Shown here: positions 5,207 to 63,002 of the stretch, one piece after another
Position numbering within the stretch: position 1 is the stretch's first letter
Layout: every line of letters begins with the position of its first letter
Source of the DNA: Dehalococcoidia bacterium
GTDB lineage: Bacteria; Chloroflexota; Dehalococcoidia; Lucifugimonadales; UBA3495
Direction: 5' to 3'
Assembly (NCBI GenBank): GCA_965115825.1
Contig: OZ220464.1
Location: 2,901,945 to 2,965,944 of the forward strand
Length of the DNA stretch: 64,000 nt
The notes under the pieces: generated by a model
What the model saw: the letters and a program-made list of their open reading frames with translations, nothing else
What the model was told of the DNA's origin: nothing
The model's database searches: none
Made by a program: the position numbers and the translations under genes

Positions 5207-7411
5207 ATGGCCACCATCCAATCCTACGCGCCCGACGCTCATCGGCTGGCCGATTCGCTGGCCGCCATCTACGCCGGCCGCTCCGACGCCGAGGGCCTGC
5301 CCGCCGCCCGCCGCATCTCCGCAACCGCAGCCCAACTGTCGGACTCCGCCCCGGCTGCCGACGCTGCAATAATCAACGTGGCGGCGCTTTTCCTCCTCTC
5401 CGGTCGGCCCGACGCTTCCCATCGCTCCCAGCTTTCCGCCGCCATCGTCGACGCTTGGCTGCGCGGCGCCGGCGCCCCTGAGCCTTTTGTCGCCGCCGTG
5501 CGCAGCGTTCTCCTGGACGCTTGGAACCCCGCTCCCAACGCCCACATCGCAAGGCTGCTGTGGCATTCCGCCCAACTGGACCTGGTCTGCGTAGAACGGC
5601 ACGCCCATTACTTGCAGGATACGCCCCCATCCGGACATTGCCGGGAGCAGTACCTGGCCGCCTACCGCCGCGATTGCCTCATGCCTGCCTTGACCCTCCG
5701 CCCGCGCTTGTCAATGCCGGCGGCGGTAGCAATCTACGATGCGCGGATGCCCCTGCTGTCCGCCTGGTTGGACCAACATCCGATGCCGCCGGTTCCCGCC
5801 GACTGGCGCCGCTTGGCCGAAGTGTCCACCATAGAGCAAGGCGTTCAGAGTCTGCTCGCCGGCGAAGACCCGGCGCAAGTCCGCGCCGCAATGCCCGCCC
5901 CCGGCCTACCCTACGCCGAATATCGGGCGCGCCAGCGCGCCATCATCGCCGGCAGCCACCACCGCATCCTGGAGTTGGCCCACGACCGTATCCAAGCCTC
6001 CCGCAACGTCGCCGCCGAAAAATACCTCGAAAGCGACACCATCCACAAACCCGCCGTCGAGGAAAACCTGTTCGCCAGCGCCCGACGCCGCGCCCGTCAG
6101 CTCGGCCTGTCTCCCGAAACCGCCGAAGACATCGCCCGCCTCCTCCTCTCCAACGCCCGCGAAGTGCAGGAACGCACCCTCAACGACATCGCCCAGCGCC
6201 TCAGCCGCCTCCACGGCCAAATCCTGGACGCCGATTCTCCCGAAACCAGCGCCGAAGAAGCCGACATCGCCACCCCTTCCCTAGTTGTGCGCACCGGCGA
6301 CCAGCCCCTGGCCCGCGAAAACGAACTCATCAAGGAACTTCGCGTTACCGGACTCAACGAAGCTTACCCGGAACAGCGTCGCCGCTTTGCCCAGTGGTTT
6401 GATCCTCCTCATCCTTACATACTCACCGGGCAGATTGTCGCCAGCCGCGACGCCGACTTGTTCCTGCAAGCCCTCACCGACGGCCATCCCTGCAAGGTCG
6501 TCGCTGCCATGCCCGCGCACGGCCCGATGCACTTGACCCATGGCGCTCTCGGCAGCCTGCTCACTTACTTCCAGTCACTGGGCGCCGCAATCATCCTCGC
6601 TTTCCGGGACGAGACCCATTCCCGCCCGGAGGCCCGCCGGAATATGCTCGACCGTCTGCTTACCCTGGCCGCCAATGGCCTCGACCTCCGCCGCGCCGAC
6701 GCTTACCTGCAACTCGACCGCCCCGCCATCACGACCGCCGCTTTTGAGCTGGGCCGCGTTACTCCCTTAAGTCTGCTCAACTCGGCCCTCGGCCTCCGCC
6801 TGAACAGCAGCGCCACCGATACCTTTCTCCCCCTCTTGCGCATCGCCGACATCCTCCATATCCAGCAGCCTGAATTCGGCGGCCCCTGCCGCACCCTGGT
6901 CATCGACGGCATCGGCGGCGACGTGTACGTCCGCATGGCCCGCAGCGTCGCCGACCGCTTTGGACTCCTCAAGCCCTCCGCCCTCTACCTCCGCGCCATG
7001 CGCAGCCTCGCCACCTACCACGACCCGACTACCGGCAGCGCCGTGGAAATTATGACCAACGCCGTCCCCCAGGGGCGCATCGCCTACGACGACCATCCTG
7101 ACGACATCCGCCGCCGCATCCGACGCGCCTACACCGGCGGACGTCGCACCTCCGCGGAGCAGCGCGCCAAGGGCGGCAACCCCGACCCCCGCGTTTGCAG
7201 CGTCTCCAGCCTCCACGCCTTCCACGCCACGCCCGAGCCCGACGCCTACGCCGAGCTGCAAAAACGCTGCCGCTCCGGAGACCTCCTCTGTGGCGAATGC
7301 AAAGCCTCCGCCGCCCACAACCTGCTAAAATACTTGCGGCGCAGCCGGCAAACCCGCGACGCCTTGCCCCAATCCGTCCAACTGCGCGCCCGCTCCCTCG
7401 CCGGCCTCTGA
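5207..7411 (+). CDS. Multidomain protein: unknown N-terminal region + AroQ chorismate-mutase-like segment + degenerate TrpRS-like C-terminal domain
   Basis: nt ~5912-6190 fits the CM_2 pattern (R..I..ILELAHDR...S..VAAEK....I..P..EE...A...GLSPE...I...L...S...Q). nt ~6412-7411 aligns by eye with the neighbouring TrpRS, but HLGH is HLTH and KMSKS is replaced by EIMTN. First ATG at 5207; the ORF is open from TTG 5150. Confidence 0.6.
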   Translation: MATIQSYAPDAHRLADSLAAIYAGRSDAEGLPAARRISATAAQLSDSAPAADAAIINVAALFLLSGRPDASHRSQLSAAIVDAWLRGAGAPEPFVAAVRSVLLDAWNPAPNAHIARLLWHSAQLDLVCVERHAHYLQDTPPSGHCREQYLAAYRRDCLMPALTLRPRLSMPAAVAIYDARMPLLSAWLDQHPMPPVPADWRRLAEVSTIEQGVQSLLAGEDPAQVRAAMPAPGLPYAEYRARQRAIIAGSHHRILELAHDRIQASRNVAAEKYLESDTIHKPAVEENLFASARRRARQLGLSPETAEDIARLLLSNAREVQERTLNDIAQRLSRLHGQILDADSPETSAEEADIATPSLVVRTGDQPLARENELIKELRVTGLNEAYPEQRRRFAQWFDPPHPYILTGQIVASRDADLFLQALTDGHPCKVVAAMPAHGPMHLTHGALGSLLTYFQSLGAAIILAFRDETHSRPEARRNMLDRLLTLAANGLDLRRADAYLQLDRPAITTAAFELGRVTPLSLLNSALGLRLNSSATDTFLPLLRIADILHIQQPEFGGPCRTLVIDGIGGDVYVRMARSVADRFGLLKPSALYLRAMRSLATYHDPTTGSAVEIMTNAVPQGRIAYDDHPDDIRRRIRRAYTGGRRTSAEQRAKGGNPDPRVCSVSSLHAFHATPEPDAYAELQKRCRSGDLLCGECKASAAHNLLKYLRRSRQTRDALPQSVQLRARSLAGL

Positions 7412-7473
7412 AGGCCCAACCTGCCGGCGAAGGCTGCCTGCTTGCCCCATCACCTACCCAGGAGACCACCGCC

Positions 7474-8490
7474 ATGTCAGACCTGCAACGCATCCTCACC
7501 GGGATGCGTCCCACCGGACAACTCCACCTCGGCCACTATCTGGGCGCCCTGGAAAACTGGACCCAAATGCAGCATGAATACGACTGCTTCTTCCTCATCG
7601 CCGATTACCAGGCCATGAGCGACCATCTCGACGACATCAGCCTCATCCGCCGCTCAGTATTAGATGTCGCCACCGACTGGCTCGCCGTCGGCCTAGACCC
7701 CGATAAGTCCGCCTTCGTCATTCAAAGCTACGTCCCCGAGCACGCCGAGCTCACCATGTACTTTTCCATGCTCACCCCCCTGAGCCAGCATCAGAAAAAC
7801 CCCACCCTCCGCGCCGAAACCGCGCAGCTCGCAGCCGAGCATCAATCCATAACCCTGGGCTTCTTCAACTACCCCATCAGCCAGGCCGCCGACATCCTTC
7901 TGCCCAAGGCCCACCTGGTTCCCGTCGGCCAGGACCAGGTTCCCCACATCGAATACACCCGCAACGTCGCCCGACGCTTCAACCGCCTCTACGGTGAAGT
8001 CTTCCCTCTCCCCCGCGCCCGCGTCGGTCGTGTTCCCCGCCTCGTTGGCACCGACGGCCAGGCCAAAATGAGCAAGAGCCTCAACAACACCATCTACCTC
8101 GCCGACGACCCGGAAACCGTCGCCAACCGCATCCGCCGCATGGTAACCGATGTCACCGGACAAAACCCCCGCCTCCGGGCCACCGACCCCGGCGTCGTGG
8201 ATCACAACCCCGCCTTCCTCTACCATGACGCATTCAACGACAACCCCGACGAAGTCGCCGAGCTCAAAGAACGTTACGCCGCTGGCTCAGTCAGCGACAG
8301 CGAAGTCAAAAAGCGTCTTACCCATGCCGTCAATCGCTTCCTGGAACCCATCCGCGAACGCCGCGCCTGGTACGAGCGGCATCCGGATTACGTCCGCGAC
8401 GTCCTCCTCGCCGGCACCCAGCGCGAACGCGACGTCGCCCAGCAAACCATGGCCGAAGTCCGCCAGGCCATGCAAGTAATTTACACTTGA
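7474..8490 (+). CDS. trpS: Tryptophan--tRNA ligase
   Basis: ILTGMRPTGQLHLGHYLGAL (HIGH-type) and KMSKS motifs. AGGAGA SD upstream of ATG 7474. Confidence 0.92.
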   Translation: MSDLQRILTGMRPTGQLHLGHYLGALENWTQMQHEYDCFFLIADYQAMSDHLDDISLIRRSVLDVATDWLAVGLDPDKSAFVIQSYVPEHAELTMYFSMLTPLSQHQKNPTLRAETAQLAAEHQSITLGFFNYPISQAADILLPKAHLVPVGQDQVPHIEYTRNVARRFNRLYGEVFPLPRARVGRVPRLVGTDGQAKMSKSLNNTIYLADDPETVANRIRRMVTDVTGQNPRLRATDPGVVDHNPAFLYHDAFNDNPDEVAELKERYAAGSVSDSEVKKRLTHAVNRFLEPIRERRAWYERHPDYVRDVLLAGTQRERDVAQQTMAEVRQAMQVIYT

Positions 8491-8655: not shown

Positions 8656-11600
8656 ATGTACATTATGACCGCAGCACAGCCCAACGTAACGGGCTCTCCC
8701 CGCTGGGATTTAGCCCGCGGCATCGTCGCCCAGCTCCGCCAAATGCCCGCAGCCACCGCCGAAGCCGAAATCGAAGTTCGCTTGCACACAGTGTTGGGCT
8801 TTCTCTTCCCTACTCTCAAATATCCCGACCTCGCCACCCAGTACCCATCCGGCGACGGGCCCATCGACATCTACTGCCGCAACGTAGTCTTTGAAACCAA
8901 ACGCCAGGGCCGAAAAGACGACGCCCGCACTAAACCCGACGGCTCTACCGAAACCCCGGAAGAGCAAGCCGTCCGTTACTTGGACGCCCTTACCGTCCAC
9001 CCCACTACGTTTGATGATATCGCCGTCGGCTGGCGCGCCGCCATCACTGACGGCAAAGAATGGAGCTTTTACGATTACCGCCGCAACTCGCCTGATGTGG
9101 GAAATCTGACCCTGATTAACACGCTGCGTTTGAATACGCCCGATGATGACGAAACACTGCTGGCATACCTCTACGATTTCGTCAACCGCACCGCCAAACT
9201 GCTGCCGCCAACCAATAACGCAGAATGGGCCGAGCGACTGGTGCAGCCCTTTATCGCGCTGGCGGCAAGCTACGAAAGCACGTCGGAATACAGCGTTAAG
9301 CAACAGCTTTGGGAAGGCGTCCTGCGCGGCGCATTTATCATCCCGCCCGATGACCCCGACGCCAAACGCGACCTCTTCGCCCGCCACACCATGTTGGTAG
9401 TAATCGCCCGCGCCATCGCTGAAACCCTGCGCCCCCGGGGACTGCGGCAAACCGGACGGGAACCGCTGCATCACACCCTCACCCAAGGCTTCTCGGCATG
9501 GTTGCTTGATGCCGCCGGTAGCGACGGCGAAGCAGCCGTGGCCGCCTTGGTGGAAGAGGTCGATAATTACGCCTGGCTCGCAGCTAACCGGGATACCCTG
9601 AAAGACCTGTACCACATCGTCATCTCCCGCGATATTCGCCATGACTTCGGGGAATATTATACGCCTGACTGGTTGGCTCGGGCAGTCTGCGAAGAGGTTC
9701 TAGATGCGGACTGGCGTAAGGAAACCATCGAGATGGCTGTTGTCGGCCAATTGAATGGTCCCGCAGTTCTGGACCCGTCATGCGGCTCCGGCACATTCCT
9801 GTTTCACGCAACCCAATTACTGCTGGAAGATGCCCGCCAGCACCCCGAGCTGGTGCAAAGCCCTCACGCGCAAGTCGAAATTGTCAACGACTTGGTGGCC
9901 GGCATTGACCTGCACCCGGTCGCAGTAGAACTTTCCAAAGCAACTAAAATGTTGGCATTTGGCGAGCTTGCTGCGTACTACGCCAACATCGCCGACCACG
10001 ACACCGTATATCTGGGTGATAGCCTGCAATGGGAAACCCGCCGCAGTCAGCGAACCGGAGAGATGGGTGGAACTGTGGATATTCCCACCGTCGAGACGGA
10101 CGCGCCCATCCGATTGCCCAACACTATTTTGGGACTGGAACGGTTCCCTCAATTGTTGGCGCAGATATTTGGCCACGCCAATCGCCCGGAAACCCCGGAT
10201 AGCGAATCCAATCTACTGGCGCTGTTGAGCTTAACAAGCCAGTCTGACCAAGAAGCGGCTGTCGAACTCTATCGGCGTATTCGCCAGTACATTGCCAGCG
10301 GCCGCAACAATGTATGGCAGTGGTACGTTGCCAATTTGGTGCAGCCCCTGCGTCTGTCCGAATCGCCGGTTTCACGCTTGGTGGGCAACCCCCCCTGGGT
10401 CGTGTACAACGCAATGTCCAACGAAAGACAGGAGGCTTTTCGGCGTCACGCCATTGACCGCCGCCTCTGGGCCGGAGCTCACTTGGCTACACAGAACGAT
10501 CTGGCGGCCACCTTTGTCGCTACCTGCGTTGATTACTACCTGCAACCGGGTTGCAAATTCGCCTTCGTGCAGCCTTACGCTGCTTTACAAGCGCGTCACT
10601 GGGAACCTTTCCGCTCCGGAGAATGGAGCTTGCCTCCCGAGGCCGGACGCTACCGTACATTAGCAGACCTAAGCTTGGAAGCGTGGGATTTACTCTCCAT
10701 CAACGCCCCACCGTTCCCTCAGGCCAATTCCTCGGTAATCTACGGAACCAAGATCGACGCTACTAATCCCACAACGCCTACACAGCCAGTACCGTTAGGT
10801 AACATTTGGGTTGCCGCCACCACTGAGTCCGTAAATACTCGTATGACATGGGAGGAGGTGAAACCTCTCGTGCAATGGAGCCGCCGTCGGCAATGGCTCA
10901 CCGCGCCCAGCCCTCTTTACTCCACGGCTTTTCGTACTGGAGCGACTCTATTCCCCCAATCGTTGGTTCTTTTCGAGCGCGTCCAATCCCGCGCTCGCGG
11001 CATAGTCTATTTTCACACCAATCAAGGCCGTGGAGCGTATCGGGACACCGACCGCGAGGGCGCAGTCGAGGAGCAGTTTGTTAAGCCCGTTTTGTTTTCT
11101 CAGCTGCTGTTGCCCTTCGGTACGACAGGGAGGTATTACCTCGTCGCTCCATTTACAAAAGATGGGACCGGCCTAATTGACGATTTGCCACCGGGCGCCG
11201 ACGCAGAGAGGTTTCGTCAATACTGGAACGCGGCAAATCAGGAGTATATTGACCGCAAGGGCGCAAGGTCGCCGCTCAATCTAACCGCCCGACTAGACCG
11301 CGGACGCGGCCTCTCATCGCAACTTAATCTACGTAGCGACTCCAAGATAGTGTACAACGGTATCGGAAATTACATTAATGCTTCCGTTGTACCAAGCTCT
11401 GACATAGTCAATCACAATCAGTACTGGTTCGCCCCTGCGGATGCTGACACGAACCACTATTTAGCTGCCATACTGAACGCCAGCTGCTTGTTGCACTTCT
11501 TTCAAGAGGCTTGTCAGCCAACAGATAGAACTTTCATGCTTCTCCCCGTCCAAAACCTCCCCATCCCGGCCTTCAACCACCGAATCCCCCATCATCGCAA

Positions 11601-11775
11601 CCTCACCGCCCAATCCCAACTCGCCCACCGGCGCGTCGCCGCCCTGGTTGCCGAACGTCAAGCCGCCAACCGCCGCATCAACCGCAACGACGTCCTGCAA
11701 GACCACGTCATGCAGCCCATCTTTGCCAGCATCGACCAGTCCGTCCGCGCCATACTCCCCAACTTCTGCTCATAA
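8656..11775 (+). CDS. Single-polypeptide type IIG/IIL-like restriction-modification enzyme (PD-ExK nuclease + gamma-class N6A MTase + large C-terminal region)
   Basis: N-terminal D-X8-E-X-K (PIDIYCRNVVFETKRQG), YYTPDWLA, SAM motif VLDPSCGSGTFLFHA, catalytic LVGNPPWVVYN. No separate R or S gene nearby. Confidence 0.7.
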   Translation: MYIMTAAQPNVTGSPRWDLARGIVAQLRQMPAATAEAEIEVRLHTVLGFLFPTLKYPDLATQYPSGDGPIDIYCRNVVFETKRQGRKDDARTKPDGSTETPEEQAVRYLDALTVHPTTFDDIAVGWRAAITDGKEWSFYDYRRNSPDVGNLTLINTLRLNTPDDDETLLAYLYDFVNRTAKLLPPTNNAEWAERLVQPFIALAASYESTSEYSVKQQLWEGVLRGAFIIPPDDPDAKRDLFARHTMLVVIARAIAETLRPRGLRQTGREPLHHTLTQGFSAWLLDAAGSDGEAAVAALVEEVDNYAWLAANRDTLKDLYHIVISRDIRHDFGEYYTPDWLARAVCEEVLDADWRKETIEMAVVGQLNGPAVLDPSCGSGTFLFHATQLLLEDARQHPELVQSPHAQVEIVNDLVAGIDLHPVAVELSKATKMLAFGELAAYYANIADHDTVYLGDSLQWETRRSQRTGEMGGTVDIPTVETDAPIRLPNTILGLERFPQLLAQIFGHANRPETPDSESNLLALLSLTSQSDQEAAVELYRRIRQYIASGRNNVWQWYVANLVQPLRLSESPVSRLVGNPPWVVYNAMSNERQEAFRRHAIDRRLWAGAHLATQNDLAATFVATCVDYYLQPGCKFAFVQPYAALQARHWEPFRSGEWSLPPEAGRYRTLADLSLEAWDLLSINAPPFPQANSSVIYGTKIDATNPTTPTQPVPLGNIWVAATTESVNTRMTWEEVKPLVQWSRRRQWLTAPSPLYSTAFRTGATLFPQSLVLFERVQSRARGIVYFHTNQGRGAYRDTDREGAVEEQFVKPVLFSQLLLPFGTTGRYYLVAPFTKDGTGLIDDLPPGADAERFRQYWNAANQEYIDRKGARSPLNLTARLDRGRGLSSQLNLRSDSKIVYNGIGNYINASVVPSSDIVNHNQYWFAPADADTNHYLAAILNASCLLHFFQEACQPTDRTFMLLPVQNLPIPAFNHRIPHHRNLTAQSQLAHRRVAALVAERQAANRRINRNDVLQDHVMQPIFASIDQSVRAILPNFCS

Positions 11776-12020
11776 GCCACAACCCACCCACACCGCCATT
11801 CCGCCAAAACCCGCAACCCGCGGCGCAACCCCCATCCTGAAAATCCTAAAATCCCGTAAATCCTGATTCTGACAAATTGATGACATCCAACGCTTGCGAA
11901 ACCGTACGCCAGTACTTTACCCTATCCCCGTCAGGCTCATCCGCCGGCCCCGCGCGAACCGTCGGATAACCGTCCCTGGCCAGGACACCGCCCGACACCA
12001 CAACTGAATAGGAGTCTCAC

Positions 12021-12258
12021 GGGGTTCAGGACATCACGGTCTAATCCGCCGCATCCGTACTGTGCGGCATGTCGGATCCATTGCACCACTGTGGTGCGCC
12101 GGAGGTCGGTCACATTACCCGGCTGGCGCACTCAGCACGGCGGGCGTCACCACCGCTGCGCGAGGACGGGCACTGCGCAAGCAGCCGTTAGCACGCGCAA
12201 GACTAGGACGTAAATAGCAAGCACGCTCTCGGGCCGTAGCGCCGACATCCTGAACCCC
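12021..12258. ncRNA. Candidate structured RNA core of element copy A (strand unresolved)
   Basis: Nested helices: 12021-12031/12248-12258 (11 bp), 12069-12075/12242-12248, hairpin 12048-12053/12063-12068, 12094-12100/12125-12131, 12147-12152/12194-12199. All inter-copy differences fall in predicted loops or junctions. Confidence 0.5.
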
Positions 12259-12311
12259 CAGGAACCCAACCAAAAATCCACCGACCGACCAAAAGGAGAG
12301 AAACAACCACC

Positions 12312-12371
12312 ATGAACACCGCCAACCCCAACCCCACTACCCGCGCCCCTCCCAAAGGCGCCGCAACATAA
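12312..12371 (+). CDS. 19-codon small ORF MNTANPNPTTRAPPKGAAT (conserved in copy B as a 17-codon ORF)
   Basis: Versus copy B: 4 nucleotide differences, all third-position synonymous, plus a 6-nt in-frame indel (NP). AAGGAGAG upstream, although the spacing to ATG (~11-13 nt) is long. Confidence 0.5.
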   Translation: MNTANPNPTTRAPPKGAAT

Positions 12372-12392
12372 GCGAAAGGCCCGATGCTGCGC

Positions 12393-12398
12393 TATAAT
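12393..12398 (+). promoter_or_regulatory. TATAAT -10-like hexamer upstream of the S9 peptidase gene
   Basis: Exact TATAAT 43 nt before ATG 12441. No convincing -35. Confidence 0.25.
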
Positions 12399-14579: not shown

Positions 14580-15782
14580 ATGACCGTCCATCACGAAATC
14601 GCAACCGTTGAAGACTTGGAACGGATCCTCGACGAGCATCCCGAAATAAGGGAGCGTATCCGTCGCAAGTTGCTCACGGACGAGGAACGCGCACTGCCCG
14701 GCATCGTAGCGCAATTGGCTGAGGAATTGCGACGCCTCACCCAAGTAGTAACCGAAGGCTTTGCCCAAGTGCATCGGGAGCTCGACGAGCTAAGGAGCGG
14801 CCAGCAAGGGCTGCTGGAACGCCAACAGCGGCTGGAAGAAGGTCAGCAAGGGCTGGTGGAAGGCCAGCAAGGGCTGCTGGAGCGCCAACAGCGGCTGGAA
14901 GAAGGTCAGCAAGGGCTGGTGGAAGGCCAGCAAGGGCTGCTGGAGCGCCAAGAGCGGCTGGAAGAAGGCCAGCAAAGCCTAGTGGAAGGCCAGCAAGGGC
15001 TGCTGGAACGCCAAGAGCGGCTGGAAGAAGGTCAGCAAGGGCTGCTGGAACGCCAAGAGCGGCTGGAAGAAGGTCAGCAAGGGCTGGTGGAAGGCCAGCA
15101 AGGGCTGCTGGAACGCCAAGAGCGGCTGGAAGAAGGTCAGCAAGGGCTGGTGGAAGGCCAGCAAGGGCTGCTGGAACGCCAAGAGCGGCTGGAAGAAGGT
15201 CAGCAAGGGCTGGTGGAAGGCCAGCAAGGGCTGCTGGAGCGCCAAGAGCGGCTGGAAGAAGGCCAGCAAGGGCTGGTGGAAGGCCAGCAAGGGCTGCTGG
15301 AACGCCAACAGCGGCTGGAAGAACGCCAACAACAGTTCCACGAGAGCCTCGAAAATCTGCGCGGTACAGTGCTGGAGCAAACTGCCGCTCGCCGGTTGTT
15401 GCCTCGTATCACCCAGGAGCTTCGGCTCCGGCGACCCCAAATCATCAAGAGCTTGGACATGGCTATGCCGGTAACCTTGCTGGACGCTCTGGACAAGGCC
15501 GCGGAAGAAGACCGCATTACAATAGATATGGCCGCCGCCGTGGCCGTAACTGACCTCATAATGCAGGGAGTATCCCGAGACGACGCCACTCCCGTCTATG
15601 TGCTCGCCGAAATATCGGGCACGCTGAACCATCACGACATCGCCCGAGCTCAAGAAAGGGCAGCAGCGTTGGAAACCGCTACCGGCCAACGTACCTTAGC
15701 GGCAGTAGCGGCCGTTGTCATACCGGAGGCTCAGCGAGGCCGCGCAGCGGCTGCCGGCGTATCTACGTACTTGCTGAGCTAG
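14580..15782 (+). CDS. Coiled-coil heptad-repeat protein with a globular C-terminal domain (possibly restriction-endonuclease-like fold)
   Basis: ~25 heptads of LLERQ(Q/E)R-LEEGQQG-LVEGQQG. The C-terminal ~130 aa are non-repetitive (..VTDLIM..VYVLAEISGTLNHHDIARAQERAAAL..). Confidence 0.7.
   Translation: MTVHHEIATVEDLERILDEHPEIRERIRRKLLTDEERALPGIVAQLAEELRRLTQVVTEGFAQVHRELDELRSGQQGLLERQQRLEEGQQGLVEGQQGLLERQQRLEEGQQGLVEGQQGLLERQERLEEGQQSLVEGQQGLLERQERLEEGQQGLLERQERLEEGQQGLVEGQQGLLERQERLEEGQQGLVEGQQGLLERQERLEEGQQGLVEGQQGLLERQERLEEGQQGLVEGQQGLLERQQRLEERQQQFHESLENLRGTVLEQTAARRLLPRITQELRLRRPQIIKSLDMAMPVTLLDALDKAAEEDRITIDMAAAVAVTDLIMQGVSRDDATPVYVLAEISGTLNHHDIARAQERAAALETATGQRTLAAVAAVVIPEAQRGRAAAAGVSTYLLS
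14799..15323 (+). repeat. Tandem coding repeat, 63-nt unit built from three 21-nt sub-units (~8 units, one 42-nt unit)
   Basis: Near-identical units ggccagcaagggctgctggaacgccaa(c/g)agcggctggaagaaggtcagcaagggctggtggaa read directly in the sequence. Confidence 0.9.
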
Positions 15783-46217: not shown

Positions 46218-46235
46218 TTTTACGGGGTCGTTTTT

Positions 46236-46280
46236 GTCAGAATCCGGATTTACGGGATTTACGGATTTTCAGGATTGGGG
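46236..46280 (+). repeat. Third copy of the phased GGATTT motif (GTCAGAATCCGGATTTACGGGATTTACGGATTTTCAGGATTGGGG)
   Basis: Same ~45-55-nt motif as at 60731-60775 (+) and 11829-11873 (-), here without the structured core. Confidence 0.8.
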
Positions 46281-53110: not shown

Positions 53111-55939
53111 CTATTGGCCGGTTTGCTCGGCCTCTGCCTTGGCGAGGTTCAATGCCAGTAGTCGCTCCAGTATCTCGCCGTCGGCCAAGTCGGGGGGCCA
53201 GCCGTAGGCGTCGGCTACCGCCGCGTCGAGCCTGTCGTGGGCGTGGGCCAGCCAAGTGGGATATTCGTTGTAGAGGTTGGTAAGGGTGCGCCGGCGCAGT
53301 TGGTCGGGGTCAAGTGCCGGATTGCCGAACAGGTCAGTGGGGTTCAGCCAATTTTCCCGCAGCCGGTTCAATTCGTATGCGGCGGTGGCGATAACCTCGC
53401 GCTGTTTGTCGGTTGGCTCCGGGAACGGGAACATCTCAAAGCAGGTGGTGGGCGTGTAACGATTAGCCGATTCGGACTCGCGTAGCTGTGACCCTGCGCC
53501 AGTAGCCCAGAGGGTATGGGTGCGGCTTTGAAGGATGCCGAAGAAGTAGTCGTCATCCCGCGCGAATACGATAACGGTGTTTGCGGGCAGAACGGCACCG
53601 TTGATCCAGGCGAATATCCGGTGCTTGGATACACCGCTAGTTCCGATGTATCGCGGCAATCCGGTTAGAGCCTCCCGCATTTGCTCTCTGGGAATACCTA
53701 AACGCCACCAATTCCTGCTTACCCTGACATCTCGGTGGCTGCCCCGGCCGGGTTTCACTTCCCGGAGAACATATTCAAACGGGGCTTCGTAAAGGGCGGC
53801 GTCCGACTCTGACCTATCCGCGCCAAAGTCGATAATCCACATATCGCTGGGATCCTGGTTAATGTCTCGGCCGTTCAGCCAAGGCTTTACGACGTCGCTG
53901 TTGGGTTTGCCATGGGGGTTAGGCCGACGCAGCATATCTGCTGCGACTTCGTGATCAATTTCAAAAGGGCCGATTTTGGTAATTCCCATAAAGCTGATGC
54001 CGGCGTTTTCGGGGAGGGTTTTGGCGCGGGTCAAGTCGGCGCCGCCGGTGAGGTCGGGGTTGATGTTGTTGACAGGATCGCCGTCCAGCATGCGGGCGGT
54101 CTCGCTGCCGTCGTCGAAGCAGATTATGGAGATATGGACGTTGGCCGGCGGGCGTCCGCCGTATTCATCATTGCTATTGCCGTTGCCGTTTTCGTCGTTA
54201 TCGGGCGGGTCGTTGGGCTTCCATTCCCGGTCGGATACCACGTGAAAGATGTCGCCGGTTGCCTTGATGCGCTCCAGCACCGGGCGATTTGACTGGAAGC
54301 GGATGGCTTGAGTCGCCAAGAGGCCGGCGCGACGAGTATTGCCGGCTTCGATCATGGCGCGCGCCTTTTCAAACCAGTAACAGCATAAGTCGCTGGAGTT
54401 GGGGATACGGTCGCGGTAGAGGGCATAAATCGCGTCGGCGCGTTGGTCGCCCAGGCGTTCCCGGAAAGAAACGTGGCCGAGGAAAGGGGGATTGCCGACG
54501 ATGTAGTCTGCGGCGGGCCATTCGGGTTCCGCCGGCCGCTCCGGGTCTGCGAGGTCGATGATGGCGTCGCGGCGCTGAATGGTGTTCAGAGAGCCCAGCA
54601 CGGGCTCTCTGTTGTATTGGTGGCCGTTTTCAATCAGCCATTGCAGATGGCCAATCCAGAGGGCAGTGCGGGCCAGGTCGCTGGCGTACTCGTTGGTTTC
54701 GATGCCGTAGAACTGGGTCGGAGACACCTCCGGCAGGAAGCCGCGCAGTTCCAAGTCGGCGGCCCGCATCAGCACTCTTTTCTCCAAGTCGTGAATTTGG
54801 CGTAGGGAAACGTAGAGGAAGTTGCCGCTGCCGCAGGCCGGGTCCAGAACGCGCACTGAAGACAGACGGCTCTGGTAGTTCTGCAAGAGCCGGCGGATTT
54901 TGACGTCATCCCGCCGGCCTCCCGGCATCAGCATTACGCCGATGTCGGCTTCGACCTGGTTCCATTCGGCGCGCAATGGGTACATTACCACCGGATCGAC
55001 TACGGTGAGGATGTCGGCTTCGGTGGTGTATTCCGCGCCAATCAGCATTTCCTTGTCGGGGTCAACCACTCGCTCGAACAGCGTGCCGAATATGGAGGGC
55101 GCGATGTGGGCCCAGTTTCGTTCGGTAGCTTCGGCCAGTCGTTCCAGTTCGTAGGGCTCCATGAGAACGGTGTCCGGCTTTTTGAACAGGTCGCCGTTGA
55201 AGTGGCGAATCGGGCTGACGCCAAACCGCCCGCCTTCGTTCATGCGCTGGAACAACTCCTGTACGCCCCGGTCGAACTCGATAGGGCTGGAGAGGTAGTT
55301 TTCGCAAAGTCGGGTAACGACCCGATCCGGAAGCAATCCCACGTCCTGGGCGAAGAAGCAGAAGACCAGTCGGTTAAGGAACCGGGCGACTTCCAGAGAG
55401 TCGATTCCGCGCTGGCGCATGGAACCGGCGATAGCCGCAAAAATGTTGGCGGTCGCCTCAGTGACCTGGCTGGGGGTGATGTCCGGTTCCAGCGAGTCTG
55501 TGTTGTGAAAGAGTCCGTGGAGTATCGCCAGGGATTCGGGCTCGTGCAGGAAATCCAACCGGATCTCGTGGACGATGGGCACCTTGTTGGTGAAGTTGGT
55601 ATGAACCCGGATGGTCTGGAAGTCGGACACTACCAGCAGGGGAGGGTTATTCAGAGCCTCCCGGTAGCGCAGCAGTTGACGATACGCCTCATCCAGATCC
55701 CGGTGCAGCCCCTTGAACTCCCAGGCGAAGTAGCCGTTCTTGTACACGTCGGCGCGGCCTCGGCGTCCAGCGGCTTCGCGGACGGAGCGTTCGAAGGTGT
55801 ACCACTGCTGCCGGGGGTCCATCTCGGCCGGGGTGGGATGTTCCACTACGCGGCAGAGGTCAAGGAACCACTCCTGCGCACCGGCGGATTCCTGGCCGCG
55901 ATTGCGGCGCCACTTGGAGATGAACTCATGGGGGGTCAT
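53111..55939 (-). CDS. MmeI-family type IIL restriction-modification enzyme (nuclease + N6A MTase + TRD in one chain)
   Basis: N-terminus ..YTFERSV...GRADVYKNGYFAWEFKG...LDEAYRQLLRY...NPPLLVVSDFQTIRVHTNF with exact D-X9-E-X-K spacing. Also VLDPACGSGNFLY and IVGNPPFLG. Confidence 0.85.
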   Translation of the reverse strand: MTPHEFISKWRRNRGQESAGAQEWFLDLCRVVEHPTPAEMDPRQQWYTFERSVREAAGRRGRADVYKNGYFAWEFKGLHRDLDEAYRQLLRYREALNNPPLLVVSDFQTIRVHTNFTNKVPIVHEIRLDFLHEPESLAILHGLFHNTDSLEPDITPSQVTEATANIFAAIAGSMRQRGIDSLEVARFLNRLVFCFFAQDVGLLPDRVVTRLCENYLSSPIEFDRGVQELFQRMNEGGRFGVSPIRHFNGDLFKKPDTVLMEPYELERLAEATERNWAHIAPSIFGTLFERVVDPDKEMLIGAEYTTEADILTVVDPVVMYPLRAEWNQVEADIGVMLMPGGRRDDVKIRRLLQNYQSRLSSVRVLDPACGSGNFLYVSLRQIHDLEKRVLMRAADLELRGFLPEVSPTQFYGIETNEYASDLARTALWIGHLQWLIENGHQYNREPVLGSLNTIQRRDAIIDLADPERPAEPEWPAADYIVGNPPFLGHVSFRERLGDQRADAIYALYRDRIPNSSDLCCYWFEKARAMIEAGNTRRAGLLATQAIRFQSNRPVLERIKATGDIFHVVSDREWKPNDPPDNDENGNGNSNDEYGGRPPANVHISIICFDDGSETARMLDGDPVNNINPDLTGGADLTRAKTLPENAGISFMGITKIGPFEIDHEVAADMLRRPNPHGKPNSDVVKPWLNGRDINQDPSDMWIIDFGADRSESDAALYEAPFEYVLREVKPGRGSHRDVRVSRNWWRLGIPREQMREALTGLPRYIGTSGVSKHRIFAWINGAVLPANTVIVFARDDDYFFGILQSRTHTLWATGAGSQLRESESANRYTPTTCFEMFPFPEPTDKQREVIATAAYELNRLRENWLNPTDLFGNPALDPDQLRRRTLTNLYNEYPTWLAHAHDRLDAAVADAYGWPPDLADGEILERLLALNLAKAEAEQTGQ

Positions 55940-55941
55940 GG

Positions 55942-57162
55942 CTATGCTATCAGGCGGAGGAAGCGGCGGCGGCCGGCTCGGATTACGTCGCCGGGGGCCA
56001 GGGTTGGGGTATCTGCGGTTGACACGCTGACTCGCTCGCCGTTGGGGCGGATGATTGCGACGGCGCTCTGGCTAATCAGGCGGCGGGCTTCGGCGTTGCT
56101 GGACGCCAGGCCGGTCTGGGTCAGCACGCGGGTGATGGGCTGTCCGACAACGTCGGCCAGGCTGAGCTCGGGTATATCGTCGGGGAGGTCGCGGCGCTGG
56201 ACTACCCGCTCGAAGTGGGTTTCGGCGGCGTGGGCGGCGTGGGCGTCGTGGAAGGCGGCGGTGATGTGTCGGGCGAGGGCCTTTTTGAAGTCCATGGGGT
56301 TGGCGGTTGCGGAGGCCATGGCTTGCCGCATTTCGGCGATGTCGGCGTCAGGGACGTCGGTGAGGTATTCGTAGTAGGGGGCGATGAGGTCGTCGGGCAG
56401 AGACATTAGCTTGCCGTACATTTCCTGGGGCGGCTCTTCCAGGGCTACGTAGTTGCCCAGGCTCTTGCTCATTTTCTGGACGCCGTCGGTGCCGACGAGG
56501 ATGGGCATCATGAAGCACTGCTGGGGGGGCTGGCCCATCATGCCTTGCAGCTCGCGGCCTACCAGGAGGTTAAACATCTGGTCGGTGCCGCCAAACTCGA
56601 CGTCGGATTTGATGACTACCGAGTCGTAGGCCTGCATCAGGGGATAGAGCAATTCGGTGATGGCGATGGGGCGGTTTTCGGCGTAGCGGTTGGCGAAGTC
56701 TTCACGGTGGAGGAATTGGTTGACGGTGAAGCGGCCGGTCAGTTCGATGACGTTGGCCAGGGTGAACTGTCCGAACCACTGGCTTTGCCATTCGACCTGG
56801 GTACGCTGGCGGTCAACGACTTTGAAGAACTGGCGCATATAGGATTCGGCATTTTCCAGAACTTCAGCGTGGCTGAGCATGTTGCGGGTGGCCGAGCGTC
56901 CGGAGGGGTCGCCGATCTGGGCGGTCCAGTCGCCGACGATGAGGATGACCTGGTGTCCCAAGTCCTGGAGTTGGCGGAGCTTGCGGAGGCCGACAACATG
57001 GCCGAGGTGGATGTCGGGCCGGCTGGGGTCGAAGCCCATTTTGAGACGCAGGGCCCGGCCGCTTTGGAGCATGGCCGTGAACTCGTCTTCGGAGATGATA
57101 CGGCTGACGCCGCGCCGGGTGATGGGGGCGAGGTTTGCGGGGATGTGTACTCGGCTGGTCAC
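55942..57162 (-). CDS. tyrS: Tyrosine--tRNA ligase
   Basis: GFDPSRPDIHLGH, KMSKSLGN and a C-terminal S4-like domain. Confidence 0.92.
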   Translation of the reverse strand: MTSRVHIPANLAPITRRGVSRIISEDEFTAMLQSGRALRLKMGFDPSRPDIHLGHVVGLRKLRQLQDLGHQVILIVGDWTAQIGDPSGRSATRNMLSHAEVLENAESYMRQFFKVVDRQRTQVEWQSQWFGQFTLANVIELTGRFTVNQFLHREDFANRYAENRPIAITELLYPLMQAYDSVVIKSDVEFGGTDQMFNLLVGRELQGMMGQPPQQCFMMPILVGTDGVQKMSKSLGNYVALEEPPQEMYGKLMSLPDDLIAPYYEYLTDVPDADIAEMRQAMASATANPMDFKKALARHITAAFHDAHAAHAAETHFERVVQRRDLPDDIPELSLADVVGQPITRVLTQTGLASSNAEARRLISQSAVAIIRPNGERVSVSTADTPTLAPGDVIRAGRRRFLRLIA

Positions 57163-60230: not shown

Positions 60231-60284
60231 TTATGTTGCGGCGCCTTTGGGGGGCGCGCGGGTGGTAGGGTTGGCGGTGTTCAT
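60231..60284 (-). CDS. 17-codon small ORF MNTANPTTRAPPKGAAT (copy B of the conserved sORF)
   Basis: Same upstream 55 nt (100% identical) and same peptide as copy A, apart from the absent NP dipeptide. All 4 substitutions are synonymous. Confidence 0.5.
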   Translation of the reverse strand: MNTANPTTRAPPKGAAT

Positions 60285-60337
60285 GGTGGTTGTTTCTCTC
60301 CTTTTGGTCGGTCGGTGGATTTTTGGTTGGGTTCCTG

Positions 60338-60581
60338 GGGGTTCAGGATGTCGGCGCTACGGCCTGAGAGCGTGGCTTGCTATTTACGTCCTAGTCTTGC
60401 GCGTGCTAACGGCTTCCTGCTTACGCAGTGCCCGTCCTCGCGCAGCGGTGGTGACTCCCGCCGTGCTGGGTGCGCCAGCCGGGTAATGTGACCGACCTCC
60501 GGCGCACCTACAGTGGTGCAATGGATCCGACATGCCGCACAGTACGGATGCGGCGGATTAGACCGTGATGTCCTGAACCCC
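60338..60581. ncRNA. Candidate structured RNA core of element copy B (strand unresolved)
   Basis: Closing helix ggggttcagga (60338-60348) / tcctgaacccc (60571-60581), with the same internal helices as copy A. Confidence 0.5.
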
Positions 60582-61018
60582 GTGAGACTCCTATTCAGTT
60601 GTGGTGTCGGGCAGTTGTCCTGGCCTGTGCACTGGGTTGGGACGGTTATACGACGGTTCGCGCGGGGCCGTTGGATGAGCCTGACGGGGATATTGTAGCA
60701 CGGTGGTACGGTTTTGCAAATGGGGTTTTTGTCAGAATCAGGATTTACGGGATTTTGGGATTTACAGGATGGGGGTTGTGGTGTGCGGCGCTGGAGGGGG
60801 GATGGGGGTTGGCGGTGGGGGATTGTCTGAATTGGGATTCATGGGATTTTAGGATTGAGGTAGGTTGCGGCGCAGGGGTGGATGGCGGCTGCGGGGGATT
60901 GGGGGGAGTGGACTGCGGATTGCGGCGGAATGAGGGTTGAGGGAGGGATGTTCTTTTGCCGGAGTGTGGATGGGGATTTCGGGTGAGGTGGGCAGGCGGG
61001 TGGGGAGGAGCTAGCCGA

Positions 61019-61140: not shown

Positions 61141-61298
61141 CCGCCTCGGAGGAGAGGTGTGGGAGCGTGGTTGACAGATGGTTGTGAGAGGGATAGTTTT
61201 GGCGTTGCTAGGTGCGGGTTGGTCGTAGGCGGCTGATGGATGTTAGCGTCGGCGCTGCCGGCGGGCAGAGGGGAATGCGCCAGAGGGAAGATTACGCA

Positions 61299-63002
61299 AT
61301 GACCGAGACGACGATGGCGCCGGCGATTAGGGGAAAGTCACTAATGCTGGGGTTCTTTAAAGCGGCAGCGCTACTTGGGCTGATCTGCGCGCTGGCTTGG
61401 GTGGCGGCCGGGTGCGGCGGGCAGTCTCAGGCCGGGCCTACAGCAGCTGATCCACCCGCCAGCGGGGCGACAGGTACGGCTGCTCCGCCAGGCGGCGGGG
61501 CGACAGGTACGGCTGTTCCGCCAGGCGGCGGGGCGACAGGTACGGCTGCTCCGCCTGACGGCGGGTTGACAGGTGCGGCTGCATCCGACCGGGATGCGCT
61601 GGTTGCGTTATACAACGCTACAGGCGGCGATAATTGGGTCGCCAATGACTTCTGGTTGAGCGACGCGCCCCTGGGAGAATGGTACGGCGTAGATACCGAC
61701 GAAAACGGCAGGGTTACAAGTATTGACTTATATCGTAATAGACTAGGCGGCGAGATACCGGCGGAGCTGGGCAGCCTGACGAACTTGAGGGCATTGCGGT
61801 TGGGCGACCTAGTAGGTTGGACATTGGACCTCTACGGCAATCAACTGTCTCCAAGCCCACCTGACCCCTTCGGTAATGGATTGATCGGCGGGATACCCTC
61901 AGAGTTGGATAGCCTGACGAATTTGGAGGTGTCGCATCGCGGCGGCGAGTTGGCTGGCAGGATACCTTCAGAGTTGGGCAACCTGCCGAGAATGGAGACA
62001 GTATATTTCTCAGACAACCGACAGTTTCCAAGTTCACCTGACCCCTTCGGTAATACATTGACGGGAGAGATACCGGCGGAGCTGGGCAACCTGACAAGCT
62101 TAGAGACATTGGGACTCGGCGGCAATTGGTTGACGGGAGAGATACCGGCGGAGCTGGGCAACCTGATGAGCTTGGAGACATTGGGACTCGGCGACAATGA
62201 GTTGACGGGCAGGATACCGACGGAGCTGGGCAACCTGGGGAACTTGGAGACATTGAGTCTTTTTGCCAATCAGCTAACAGAGGAGATACCGACGGAGTTG
62301 GGCAACTTAGAGGACTTGTGGGTGTTGGATCTCTCCGTCAATCAGTTGACGGGCGGGATACCGTTGGAGTTGGGAAACCTGGCGAACTTGCGGATATTAG
62401 CTCTCGCAGATAATAAGTTGACGGGCGGGATACCGGCGGAGCTGGACAACTTGGCAAACTTGGAGGCATTGGATCTCAGCTATAATCAGCTGACAGGGGA
62501 GATACCGTCGGGGTTGATGAACCTAGCGAGCTTGGAGGCGTTGCGTCTCGGCTACATTGGGCTAACGGGGGAGATACCGTCGGGATTAGGCAACCTGACG
62601 AATTTGCGGGAATTGGATCTCTCCGACAATGAGCTAACGGGCAGAATACCGGCGGAGTTGGGCAACGTAGAGAATTTGTGGGAATTGGATCTCTCCGGCA
62701 ATGAGTTGACGGGCGGGATACCGGCGGCGCTGGGGGATCTGTGGCGCCTGGGGATATTGAGCCTTTCTGACAATCAGCTAGTAGGGGAGATACCGGCAGA
62801 GTTGGGGAACCTCGTCGGCTTGCAAGAGTTGCAGCTCAACAACAATCGGTTGACGGGGGAAGTACCGACGGAGTTGGGGAACCTGTGGAACTTGTGGAAA
62901 TTGGATCTCTCCGGCAATGAGTTGATGAGGTGTGTGCCAGCCGCTTTGCGTGATATCTACAAGAATGATTGGGATGAAGTGGGGCTGCCTTTCTGCGACT
63001 AG
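61299..63002 (+). CDS. Leucine-rich-repeat lipoprotein (plant-type 24-aa LRRs)
   Basis: Signal/lipobox ..WVAAGC, PPGGGATGTA repeats, then ~20 LRRs of L..L..L.L..N.LTG.IP.ELGNL. ATG 61299 has an upstream AGAGGGAAG. Confidence 0.8.
   Translation: MTETTMAPAIRGKSLMLGFFKAAALLGLICALAWVAAGCGGQSQAGPTAADPPASGATGTAAPPGGGATGTAVPPGGGATGTAAPPDGGLTGAAASDRDALVALYNATGGDNWVANDFWLSDAPLGEWYGVDTDENGRVTSIDLYRNRLGGEIPAELGSLTNLRALRLGDLVGWTLDLYGNQLSPSPPDPFGNGLIGGIPSELDSLTNLEVSHRGGELAGRIPSELGNLPRMETVYFSDNRQFPSSPDPFGNTLTGEIPAELGNLTSLETLGLGGNWLTGEIPAELGNLMSLETLGLGDNELTGRIPTELGNLGNLETLSLFANQLTEEIPTELGNLEDLWVLDLSVNQLTGGIPLELGNLANLRILALADNKLTGGIPAELDNLANLEALDLSYNQLTGEIPSGLMNLASLEALRLGYIGLTGEIPSGLGNLTNLRELDLSDNELTGRIPAELGNVENLWELDLSGNELTGGIPAALGDLWRLGILSLSDNQLVGEIPAELGNLVGLQELQLNNNRLTGEVPTELGNLWNLWKLDLSGNELMRCVPAALRDIYKNDWDEVGLPFCD
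61464..61583 (+). repeat. 33-nt tandem coding repeat (3.6 units; GATGTA(A/V)PPGG)
   Basis: ggggcgacaggtacggctgctccgccaggcggc repeated head-to-tail. Confidence 0.85.

Follow-up and report, generated by a model that had tools for sequence, protein, structure and literature searches.

A duplicated, promoter-bearing structured RNA element in a Dehalococcoidia bacterium as a candidate member of an undescribed multi-copy RNA family

What is a highly conserved, multi-helix RNA-like element of about 240 nucleotides (nt) doing upstream of two different peptidase-type genes in one bacterium? We addressed this question in a 64,000-nt stretch of DNA from a Dehalococcoidia bacterium (contig OZ220464.1 of assembly GCA_965115825.1; this whole stretch is called the window below), where a first-pass annotation made from the letters alone had described the element and proposed a riboswitch-like leader. 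We found the element to be part of a larger duplicated unit that belongs to a multi-copy family. With about even confidence, we take the two copies to be a member pair of a previously undescribed RNA-gene family of SAR202/Dehalococcoidia-like Chloroflexota, in which each copy would be a self-contained unit with a ribosome- or Rho-engaging tail. The robust part of this reading is a new multi-copy, promoter-bearing structured RNA family that is not tied to peptidase genes and is not a cobalamin riboswitch.

The duplicated unit and its homologues

Sequence comparison placed the two copies in inverted orientation, copy A at 12021-12258 (plus strand) and copy B at 60338-60581 (minus strand), as the first-pass annotation had reported. 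Its repeated element of about 240 nt stood as the core of the repeat, while the homologous unit proved larger, about 550 nt (~11826-12372 versus 60778-60228), with 89% identity between A and B. The order within each unit is a promoter-like box, a 5' leader, a core of 238 or 244 nt, an A/C-rich linker, a Shine-Dalgarno (SD)-like AAAGGAG, and a short open reading frame (sORF) of 19 or 17 codons; the G-poor linker followed by an sORF is as first described. An S9-family peptidase gene lies 3' of copy A and a gamma-glutamyltranspeptidase (GGT) gene 3' of copy B. The features are as follows.

11829-11876, plus: AAATCC-repeat box, copy A; 96% identical to the copy-B box, with a third, solitary copy at 46233-46280
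11894-11923, plus: promoter-like element, copy A; TTGCGA, 18-nt spacer, TACCCT
11904-11915, plus: GTAC-N4-GTAC motif in the copy-A promoter spacer
11924-12020, plus: 5' leader, copy A; only the final ~25 nt (ACAACTGAATA...TCAC) kept between clades
12021-12258, plus: structured core, copy A; from the helix check, hand-curated alignment and RNAalifold
12021-31/12248-58, plus: helix P1, copy A
12036-42/12231-37, plus: helix PL, copy A; crosses P3
12048-53/12063-68, plus: helix P2, copy A
12071-75/12242-46, plus: helix P3, copy A
12089-91 and 12094-100 / 12125-31 and 12133-35, plus: helix P4, copy A
12104-09/12119-24, plus: helix P5, copy A
12138-43/12150-55, plus: helix P6, copy A (unsupported)
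12157-62/12194-99, plus: helix P7a, copy A
12165-69/12185-89, plus: helix P7b, copy A
12173-76/12181-84, plus: GNRA hairpin, copy A
12200-12230, plus: J8, conserved single strand, copy A
12259-12292, plus: A/C-rich, G-poor, nearly U-free linker, copy A; A 44%, C 41%, G 12%, U 3%
12293-12300, plus: SD-like AAGGAGAG, copy A, with GGAG at 12295-12298; A(A/G)GGAG(A/G) ends the linker in 5/5 copies
12312-12371, plus: sORF, copy A, encoding MNTANPNPTTRAPPKGAAT and a stop; Arg-Ala-Pro-Pro (RAPP) codons at 12342-12353
12393-12398, plus: TATAAT, possible own promoter of the S9 gene, between sORF and S9 gene
60728-60778, minus: AAATCC-repeat box, copy B
60692-60720, minus: promoter-like element, copy B; TTGCAA, 16-nt spacer, TACAAT, TG before the -10
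60582-60691, minus: 5' leader, copy B
60338-60581, minus: structured core, copy B, 244 nt; P1 at 60571-81/60338-48
60304-60337, minus: A/C-rich linker, copy B; identical to copy A
60296-60303, minus: SD-like AAGGAGAG, copy B, with GGAG at 60298-60301
60231-60284, minus: sORF, copy B, encoding MNTANPTTRAPPKGAAT and a stop; RAPP codons at 60249-60260

Identity between A and B is 99% in the paired and 96% in the unpaired columns of the core, 100% in the linker plus SD, 71% in the promoter, 84% in the leader and 88% in the 50 nt 3' of the SD, and similarity stops at the sORF stop codon. Segment identities put the core first in conservation in each paralogue pair. The two cores differ at seven places, against the roughly six first counted: four substitutions from A to B (T12132C, C12145A, C12178U and G12231A) and three insertions in B (an A after 12092, 4 nt after 12184 and a C near 12222). 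All differences had been assigned to loops or junctions, which holds for six of the seven; G12231A lies in the long-range helix PL, where pairing is kept (U.G to U:A). Divergence is indeed lower in the core than in the adjacent sORF, where the ~55 nt compared contain four third-position substitutions, each of them synonymous, and a 6-nt indel that keeps the frame. A coding function of the core was rejected, since no reading frame survives the A/B indels of 1, 4 and 1 nt. A near-identical copy of A is present in an assembly of the same species (L004), with five differences in 625 nt, four of them clustered in the linker (three substitutions and a 1-nt deletion) and one in the sORF (L004 9900-9960 versus window 12255-12325). 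The identity of the A and B linkers despite these changes in L004 may point to gene conversion between the two paralogous copies.

Gene callers sometimes predict spurious open reading frames (ORFs) antisense to GC-rich RNA genes. To collect homologues, as the first-pass annotation had advised, we searched the 101-amino-acid (aa) antisense ORF of copy B against 1.8 billion representative proteins, resulting in four matches that share GGSGCRRYGQRAWLRI.LLGLRVLT...PRAAVV; the pattern common to the spurious antisense ORFs is GGSGCRRYGQRA...LRVLT...PRAAVV. On three contigs (L014, L015 and L016), RNA homologues 73-78% identical to A lie on the strand opposite to the called ORF, giving three further DNA copies besides L004. 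A profile search with the antisense ORFs found 14 such proteins, five of them on a single 4.55-Mb contig and the others representing further clades, and the RNA is therefore a multi-copy family. By profile nhmmer, copies were found only in the window (two), L004 and L014-L016. Homologues of the source-genome proteins are labelled Chloroflexota, SAR202 or Dehalococcoidia.

Other searches gave no further members. A metagenome scan with the 18-mer CTAGGACGTAAATAGCAA, which differs between clades, returned three chance matches in AT-rich coding DNA, and a genome scan with the 18-mer CATCACGGTCTAATCCGC, from a segment that differs between clades, also returned three chance matches. No match was found by blastn of the 550-nt unit against plasmids and phages, nor in scans of viral contigs that included family-invariant blocks as probes. 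We found no earlier description of the motif in the literature.

The genomic neighbourhood separates the element from the peptidase genes, to which the first-pass annotation had tied it as a leader. We found no trace of the RNA, profile nhmmer included, within 10 kb of the S9 orthologues in L005-L007 (80-84% aa identity) or the GGT orthologues in L008-L010 (~87% aa identity), and the element is thus not the ancestral leader of either gene. The neighbours on the RNA strand in L014-L016 are alaS (~760 nt away), a PAC2-family gene (~390 nt) and radC (~900 nt), with the intervening gaps of 390-900 nt filled with repetitive extragenic palindromic (REP)-like repeats. Across the family, the downstream genes are unrelated and the gaps span 70-900 nt. 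As the units are multi-copy, turn over between genomes and have unrelated neighbours, their place upstream of two peptidase genes appears incidental. A real convergent gene between the L014 RNA and alaS was considered and rejected, with Pfam giving only a sub-threshold DUF7267 match.

Both peptidase genes have promoter-like boxes of their own behind the RNA module: a -10-like TATAAT at 12393-98 for S9, with TACACT or TAAACT at the equivalent spot in relatives, and CTGGCA-18-TATACT at 60199-60170 for GGT. The longest S9 ORF starts at 12384, and the public call (708 aa) is this longer form; homologues align from residue ~20 (97% query coverage), so the start is probably the ATG at 12441.

The genomes of the L014-L016 clade are rich in small REP-like repeats (GTCATTGCGAGCGCAGCGCGGCAATC, GGGGCGAATAATTATTCGCCCC, CATGGTGAGCCTGTCGAACCATG and a 22-nt unit, GTCGAAGATGCGCCTGTGGCGT), located at ~10320-10345 in L014, at 1500-1760 and 1960-2100 in L015, and at 8800-9000, 9190-9290 and 9700-9990 in L016.

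Fold and transcribed strand of the core

Four of the five helices first proposed, including the 11-bp closing helix, are exact: 12021-31/12248-58 (11/11 Watson-Crick pairs), 12069-75/12242-48 (7/7), 12048-53/12063-68 (6/6) and 12094-100/12125-31 (7/7). The fifth had been misplaced by 10 nt; its TGCGCG lies at 12157-62, not 12147-52, and pairs 6/6 with 12194-99. Minimum free energy z-scores were -2.2 on both strands for the core, and -0.96 and +0.65, insignificant, for a 321-nt stretch. Folding energy alone is weak evidence here, and the case that the fold is better than chance rests on the homologues.

We aligned five sequences from two clades (A, B and L014-L016) by a manual, anchor-based procedure, used because MAFFT alignments mis-align P2 with an inserted 22-nt repeat. 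Pairs were counted per helix and then recounted with a pair-counting tool on ungapped columns, for a total of 61 pairs. Paired cells made up 94.4%, compared with 88.9 +/- 1.0 in shuffled alignments, and the covariation score was 0.233, compared with 0.136; none of 500 shuffles reached either value. Controls in which partners were slid by 1-3 columns gave 31-42% paired cells and 0-1 compensatory pairs. Double-sided changes occur in eight pairs: two in P1 (A:U to G:C; A:U to U:A), one in PL (U.G, U:A and A:U across copies), one in P2 (C:G to U:A), three in P4 (G:C to C:G, G:C to A:U, C:G to U:A) and one in P7b (G:C, C:G and U.G across copies). With P1, P2 and P4 covarying among the homologues, the first-pass proposal of a structured RNA gained support. 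RNAalifold on the curated alignment returned P1-P7.

Eight more pairs show one-sided changes through G-U, and 8/8 of these pair only on the sORF-sense strand, where G.U cells number 21 against 3-8 A.C cells. The tip of P7 carries a GNRA loop, GCAA in A and GUAA in B. Since only the sORF-sense strand can accommodate the one-sided changes, and both the promoter and the GNRA loops lie on it, we assign the RNA to that strand, a point the first-pass annotation had left open. Its remark that two helices contain G-U pairs only on the opposite strand did not survive, as the helices it listed are Watson-Crick throughout and the G-U pairs of the refined helices are on the sORF-sense strand. Fold and strand are thus supported, though thinly, by comparison of two clades.

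Helix PL (12036-42/12231-37) crosses P3 (12071-75/12242-46), and the two could form either a pseudoknot or alternative states. In a third clade, represented by back-translated antisense ORFs (P0259 and P0260), the 5' strand of P7a would change from TGCGCG to NCCNCG and the 3' strand from CGCGCA to CRTGRA; this suggests a G:C to C:G exchange if Phe is encoded by TTC, and the change was kept out of the counts. L015 and L016 have insertions of 125-170 nt, made of tandem 22-nt repeats, in the P7 tip where A and B have the GNRA hairpin. The 22-nt unit occurs once after P2 in all copies of this clade and two to four times in tandem in the P7 tip, which marks both places as peripheral sites. Among candidate pairings that we rejected, a GCACC/GGTGC hairpin at 12083-97 is not kept in L014-L016, nor is an ATCCG/CGGAT extension of P2 kept.

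Promoter, tail and short open reading frame

All five copies have a promoter-like TTGCNN, 16-18 nt, TACAMT with CCGTAC-N4-GTNC in the spacer, a motif found almost solely at these RNA promoters. The copy-A hexamers are too weak for a consensus promoter scan, and copy B matches well. The spacer motif, which may be an operator, is at 11902-11915 and 60698-60711 in the window, 10766-79 in L014, 2349-62 in L015 and 9538-51 in L016 (as CCGTAC-N4-GT(A/T/G)C). In copy A it forms a perfect GTAC-N4-GTAC palindrome, and the P2 loop also contains CCGTAC. The spacer motif differs by a single base from GAAC-N4-GTTC, the LexA box of Gram-positive bacteria. Both RNA promoters in the window are preceded by the AAATCC box, 48 nt of phased repeats (…GAAAATCCTAAAATCCCGTAAATCCTGATTCTGACAAA). 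The solitary box at 46233-46280 is between two plus-strand genes, and a weaker one is at 60819-60869; AAATCCNNNAAATCC with at most one mismatch occurs five times versus 0.2 expected. The leader that follows the promoter is variable, with the end ACAWCTGAATA..TCAC common to all five copies.

Downstream of the core, the linker is 34-46 nt long in 5/5 copies, with 42-46% A, 41-43% C, 9-16% G and 0-3% U, and is predicted to be largely unpaired. The SD-like A(A/G)GGAG(A/G) that closes it is predicted to be mostly unpaired as well. In A and B, the C-rich, G-poor bias continues through the sORF for ~110 nt; a Rho utilization (rut) site takes roughly 60-80 nt of unstructured RNA that is rich in C and poor in G. 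We found no intrinsic terminator at copies A and B. What is conserved across the family is therefore the promoter, core, linker and SD-like box, and not the sORF or the peptidase neighbourhood.

The sORF is found in part of the family only. In A, B and L004, an ATG 13 nt after GGAG opens an ORF of 19 or 17 codons with intact RAPP, which ends five residues before the C-terminus. The four A/B substitutions in the sORF are all synonymous (~0.012 by codon position alone), a pattern that speaks for translation in this species; L004 adds a single non-synonymous change. An ATG at equal spacing in L014 opens an 8-codon ORF that runs into an inserted repeat, and L015 and L016 have CTA where A has ATG, with nucleotides matching ...ACCCGCGCCCC... 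still recognisable. Judged from these sequences, the sORF appears to be one lineage's reading of a C-rich tail that is itself conserved.

RAPP is a documented arrest motif that is refractory to EF-P (PMC12992588; PMC10951233; PMC7897499). An analysis of phyla that included Chloroflexota showed it to be strongly depleted from proteomes and enriched close to the C-terminal end of small ORFs upstream of diverse genes (PMC12992588). The sORF resembles the RAPP arrest peptides ApdA, ApdP, CruR and those of Streptomyces upstream ORFs in carrying the motif near the C-terminus of a small upstream ORF (PMC7897499, PMC10951233, PMC12992588). It differs in having 17-19 residues without a signal or transmembrane segment and in not being conserved in the other members of the RNA family, and arrest by it is putative.

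These features suggest how the unit might work. Transcription of the units, engagement of ribosomes or Rho, stalling and any effect on downstream genes are what we infer from them. Each copy would combine its own sigma-70-like promoter and a variable leader with a core of 240-410 nt, an A/C-rich tail of 34-46 nt and a near-perfect SD-like box. On the sORF-sense strand, the core would form a multi-helix domain closed by P1 (P1-P7), with PL as a long-range or pseudoknot helix, and both function and sequence constraint would reside in this folded core. A conserved tail, A/C-rich and unstructured, together with the SD-like box suggests that 30S or Rho engagement is part of the unit's working; the tail would be a landing pad for a 30S subunit or ribosome, or for Rho, and its occupant would decide between a transcription stop, leaving a stable P1-closed RNA, and run-on into downstream DNA. 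In this genome the C-rich tail would have become a translated 17-19-codon sORF whose RAPP parks a ribosome on the tail, and the parked ribosome would shield it from Rho and from 5'-3' decay, favouring read-through into the S9 and GGT genes.

Some parts of this scheme have parallels. In tna, a stalled ribosome masks the Rho loading site. By analogy, a RAPP-parked ribosome could shield the tail as in tnaC, where the rut site is masked, or as in stabilisers of the stalled-ribosome or STAB-SD kind. STAB-SD and other 5' stabiliser elements of Gram-positive mRNAs include that of cryIIIA (GAAAGGAGG). As in those elements, a perfect SD-like box need not start translation here, with L015 and L016 having no start codon behind it. 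Unlike STAB-SD, which lies near the mRNA 5' end, the box is 330-500 nt past the presumed transcription start, behind a structured domain.

Competing explanations and meaning

Multi-copy families of small or non-coding RNAs with their own promoters include Qrr1-5, the streptococcal csRNAs and the cyanobacterial Yfr2 family. The element described here is like them in having near-identical intergenic copies with a conserved promoter, unrelated neighbours and a constrained RNA body. It is unlike them in being far larger (core 240-410 nt, unit ~450-600 nt) with a P1-closed multi-helix fold, and in having a conserved A/C-rich tail with an SD-like box and no intrinsic terminator.

Several points weigh against an RNA-gene family with an engaging tail. 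The comparison covers five distinct DNA sequences in two clades, and the alignment was curated by hand, with gap columns dropped and several helices refined on these very sequences. Taken alone, double-change pairs are not significantly numerous (37/500 shuffles). P3, P6 and P7a show no variation among the DNA copies, and one C.A mismatch in P6 is present throughout. The near-identity of the A and B cores could come partly from gene conversion instead of selection. Conservation of an SD-like box would be unexpected in a purely non-coding RNA, and the presence of Rho, stalling with a nascent chain of 14 residues and use of an SD 13 nt from the ATG are all putative. Finally, the next annotated gene on the RNA strand is co-oriented in 5/5 loci, which also fits a cis-acting leader.

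Such a riboswitch-like 5' leader is the strongest competitor, and we consider it possible but clearly less probable. The core would bind a metabolite, a tRNA or a protein, and by switching between a P1/P3-closed state and another one (PL or core-to-tail pairing) it would unmask or conceal the tail and SD and so control sORF translation or Rho-dependent read-through into the downstream gene. Besides the co-orientation, the conserved SD-like box at the 3' end with no terminator fits this idea, as do the crossing of PL, which covaries, and P3 as possible alternative states, and several of the downstream genes touch amino-acid supply (S9 peptidase, GGT and alaS). RNAalifold on A, B and L004 also proposes that GGUCGGUC pairs with GACCGACC of the tail; pairing of the P5 5' strand with the tail is perfect in A, compensated at a shifted position in L016 and mismatched in L014 and L015. 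Against a leader, we found no conserved gene class, with PAC2 and radC also downstream and gaps of 390-900 nt holding REP-like repeats in L014-L016; the S9 and GGT genes have their own -10 boxes behind the module, and their orthologues in relatives manage without the element. The promoter belongs to the duplicated unit, and the paralogues show near-identity in their loops as well as their helices, which is not typical of riboswitch paralogues. Predictions leave the SD largely unpaired, and CUCUC in J8, considered as an anti-SD, pairs weakly in the L014-L016 clade and is altered in the back-translated third clade. No Rfam riboswitch matches. For a riboswitch-like cis role, with no conserved gene class, no terminator and no demonstrable SD-sequestering helix, we found no positive evidence.

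A selfish DNA repeat of the miniature inverted-repeat transposable element (MITE), REP or BOX type, with an outward promoter and helices that are inverted repeats kept at the DNA level, is unlikely. The unit resembles structured intergenic repeats such as the pneumococcal BOX, Neisseria Correia and REP/BIME elements in being multi-copy, intergenic, foldable, promoter-capable and patchy between related genomes. As expected of MITE or REP elements, its flanks vary and it is missing from orthologous loci; the host genomes are full of small repeats, some inside the element itself, and an 11-bp inverted repeat bounds the core. Conservation, however, reaches ~190 nt upstream and ~110 nt downstream of this inverted repeat, which is therefore not the end of the unit; family homology spans the promoter to ~35 nt past the SD-like box, leaving the inverted repeat internal. 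Unlike those repeats, the unit has no terminal inverted repeats, and we saw no target-site duplication or flanking direct repeat. DNA-level selection does not predict that one-sided changes be of the G-U type on one strand in 8/8 cases, and the many short internal helices with compensatory changes, as well as the lack of matches in plasmid, phage and viral collections, also argue against a selfish repeat.

We give an equally low probability to the converse, that the RAPP peptide is a functional arrest regulator of the peptidase genes and the RNA a long 5' untranslated region homogenised by gene conversion. It accounts for the synonymous-only sORF divergence between A and B and for the intact RAPP in A, B and L004, and the linker, 100% identical in A and B yet changed at four places in L004, hints at concerted evolution. 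Leaders with short stalling or proline-rich ORFs and Rho control include Salmonella mgtA/mgtL and E. coli tnaC, and the likeness extends to a structured 5' RNA, a C-rich, G-poor stretch and a short proline-rich ORF. Those systems are single-copy and serve one operon, whereas here the sORF is restricted to one lineage and the genes that follow it vary; A/B similarity ends at the stop codon, leaving no common structure to link the sORF with these genes or their ribosome-binding sites. The core is conserved and covarying in homologues that have no sORF (L014-L016), and a peptide with no signal or transmembrane segment is unlike known monitoring substrates. RAPP upstream ORFs do regulate diverse downstream genes (PMC12992588).

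Known RNA families explain the element least well. Rfam 15 at gathering thresholds gave no relevant match in the whole window, and at E<=10 the sole match around copy A was a chance snoRNA fragment; nothing relevant was found for the L014 homologue (E<=10) or for four loci (gathering score), and ARAGORN found no tRNA or tmRNA. In agreement with the first-pass annotation, which did not recognise tmRNA, RNase P, SRP, 6S or group II intron signatures, these searches matched none of those, nor T-box, group I introns or other curated families, and a number of at least five copies per genome also argues against a housekeeping RNA. T-box identity was rejected further in that UGGN is not within a conserved bulge. 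A divergent cobalamin riboswitch, the tentative lead of the first-pass annotation, is highly improbable: the element shares the size range and P1-closed multi-helix junction of RF00174 and its variants and a loose by-eye similarity, but RF00174, RF01482 and RF01689 have no match at E<=10 on either strand of copy A or L014, the B12-box-like segments vary in L014-L016 (CCACTG to CCGCTG, GCCGGAGGTCGG to GCAAAGGCCGG or GCAAAGGCTGG), and none of the downstream genes (S9 peptidase, GGT, alaS, PAC2-family and radC) is cobalamin-related.

Other features of the window are reported here as a separate resource. Directly 3' of the S9 gene, an ORF at 14580-15782 (400 aa, no Pfam match) contains ~37 tandem 21-nt (7-codon) repeats at 14673-15458. 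Oriented divergently from RNA copy B, an ORF at 61212-63002 consists of 72-nt repeats and encodes a leucine-rich-repeat protein, an unusual find in bacteria; 33-nt tandem repeats lie at 61446-61577. Two MmeI-like type IIL restriction-modification genes (8656-11775 and 53111-55939) lie one near each RNA copy, each with a nearby class-I Trp/Tyr-type aminoacyl-tRNA synthetase gene (7195-8490 and 55942-57162), and these have a 54-nt stretch in common, with 78% complementarity.

SAR202 and related Chloroflexota are abundant in the ocean and for the most part uncultured, and to our knowledge almost nothing is known of their RNA biology. With several near-identical copies and no curated family, the element is a candidate for a new functional RNA class in this group, and the false lead of a B12 or peptidase riboswitch is removed. 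Its general kind, a bacterial structured non-coding or leader RNA, is familiar; unusual are its size, its several copies with their own promoters, a nearly U-free tail with an SD and no conserved ORF, and a possibly new-born RAPP sORF. The invariant blocks TCACCACCGCTGCGCGAGG, AGCACGCGCAA and CACGCTCTCNGGCCGTAGCGCCGACA, together with the seed block GGCCGTAGCGCCGACA, can serve as search probes. The boldest version, which we regard as unlikely as a whole, is a new class of large RNA gene, so far in SAR202-like Chloroflexota only, with a pseudoknotted core and a ribosome-trapping tail from which a RAPP peptide evolved de novo in one lineage. If true, an arrest-peptide sORF would have been born from a non-coding RNA tail, parking a ribosome as a shield against Rho or decay, and the copies with and without the possible young RAPP sORF make this origin of an arrest peptide testable.

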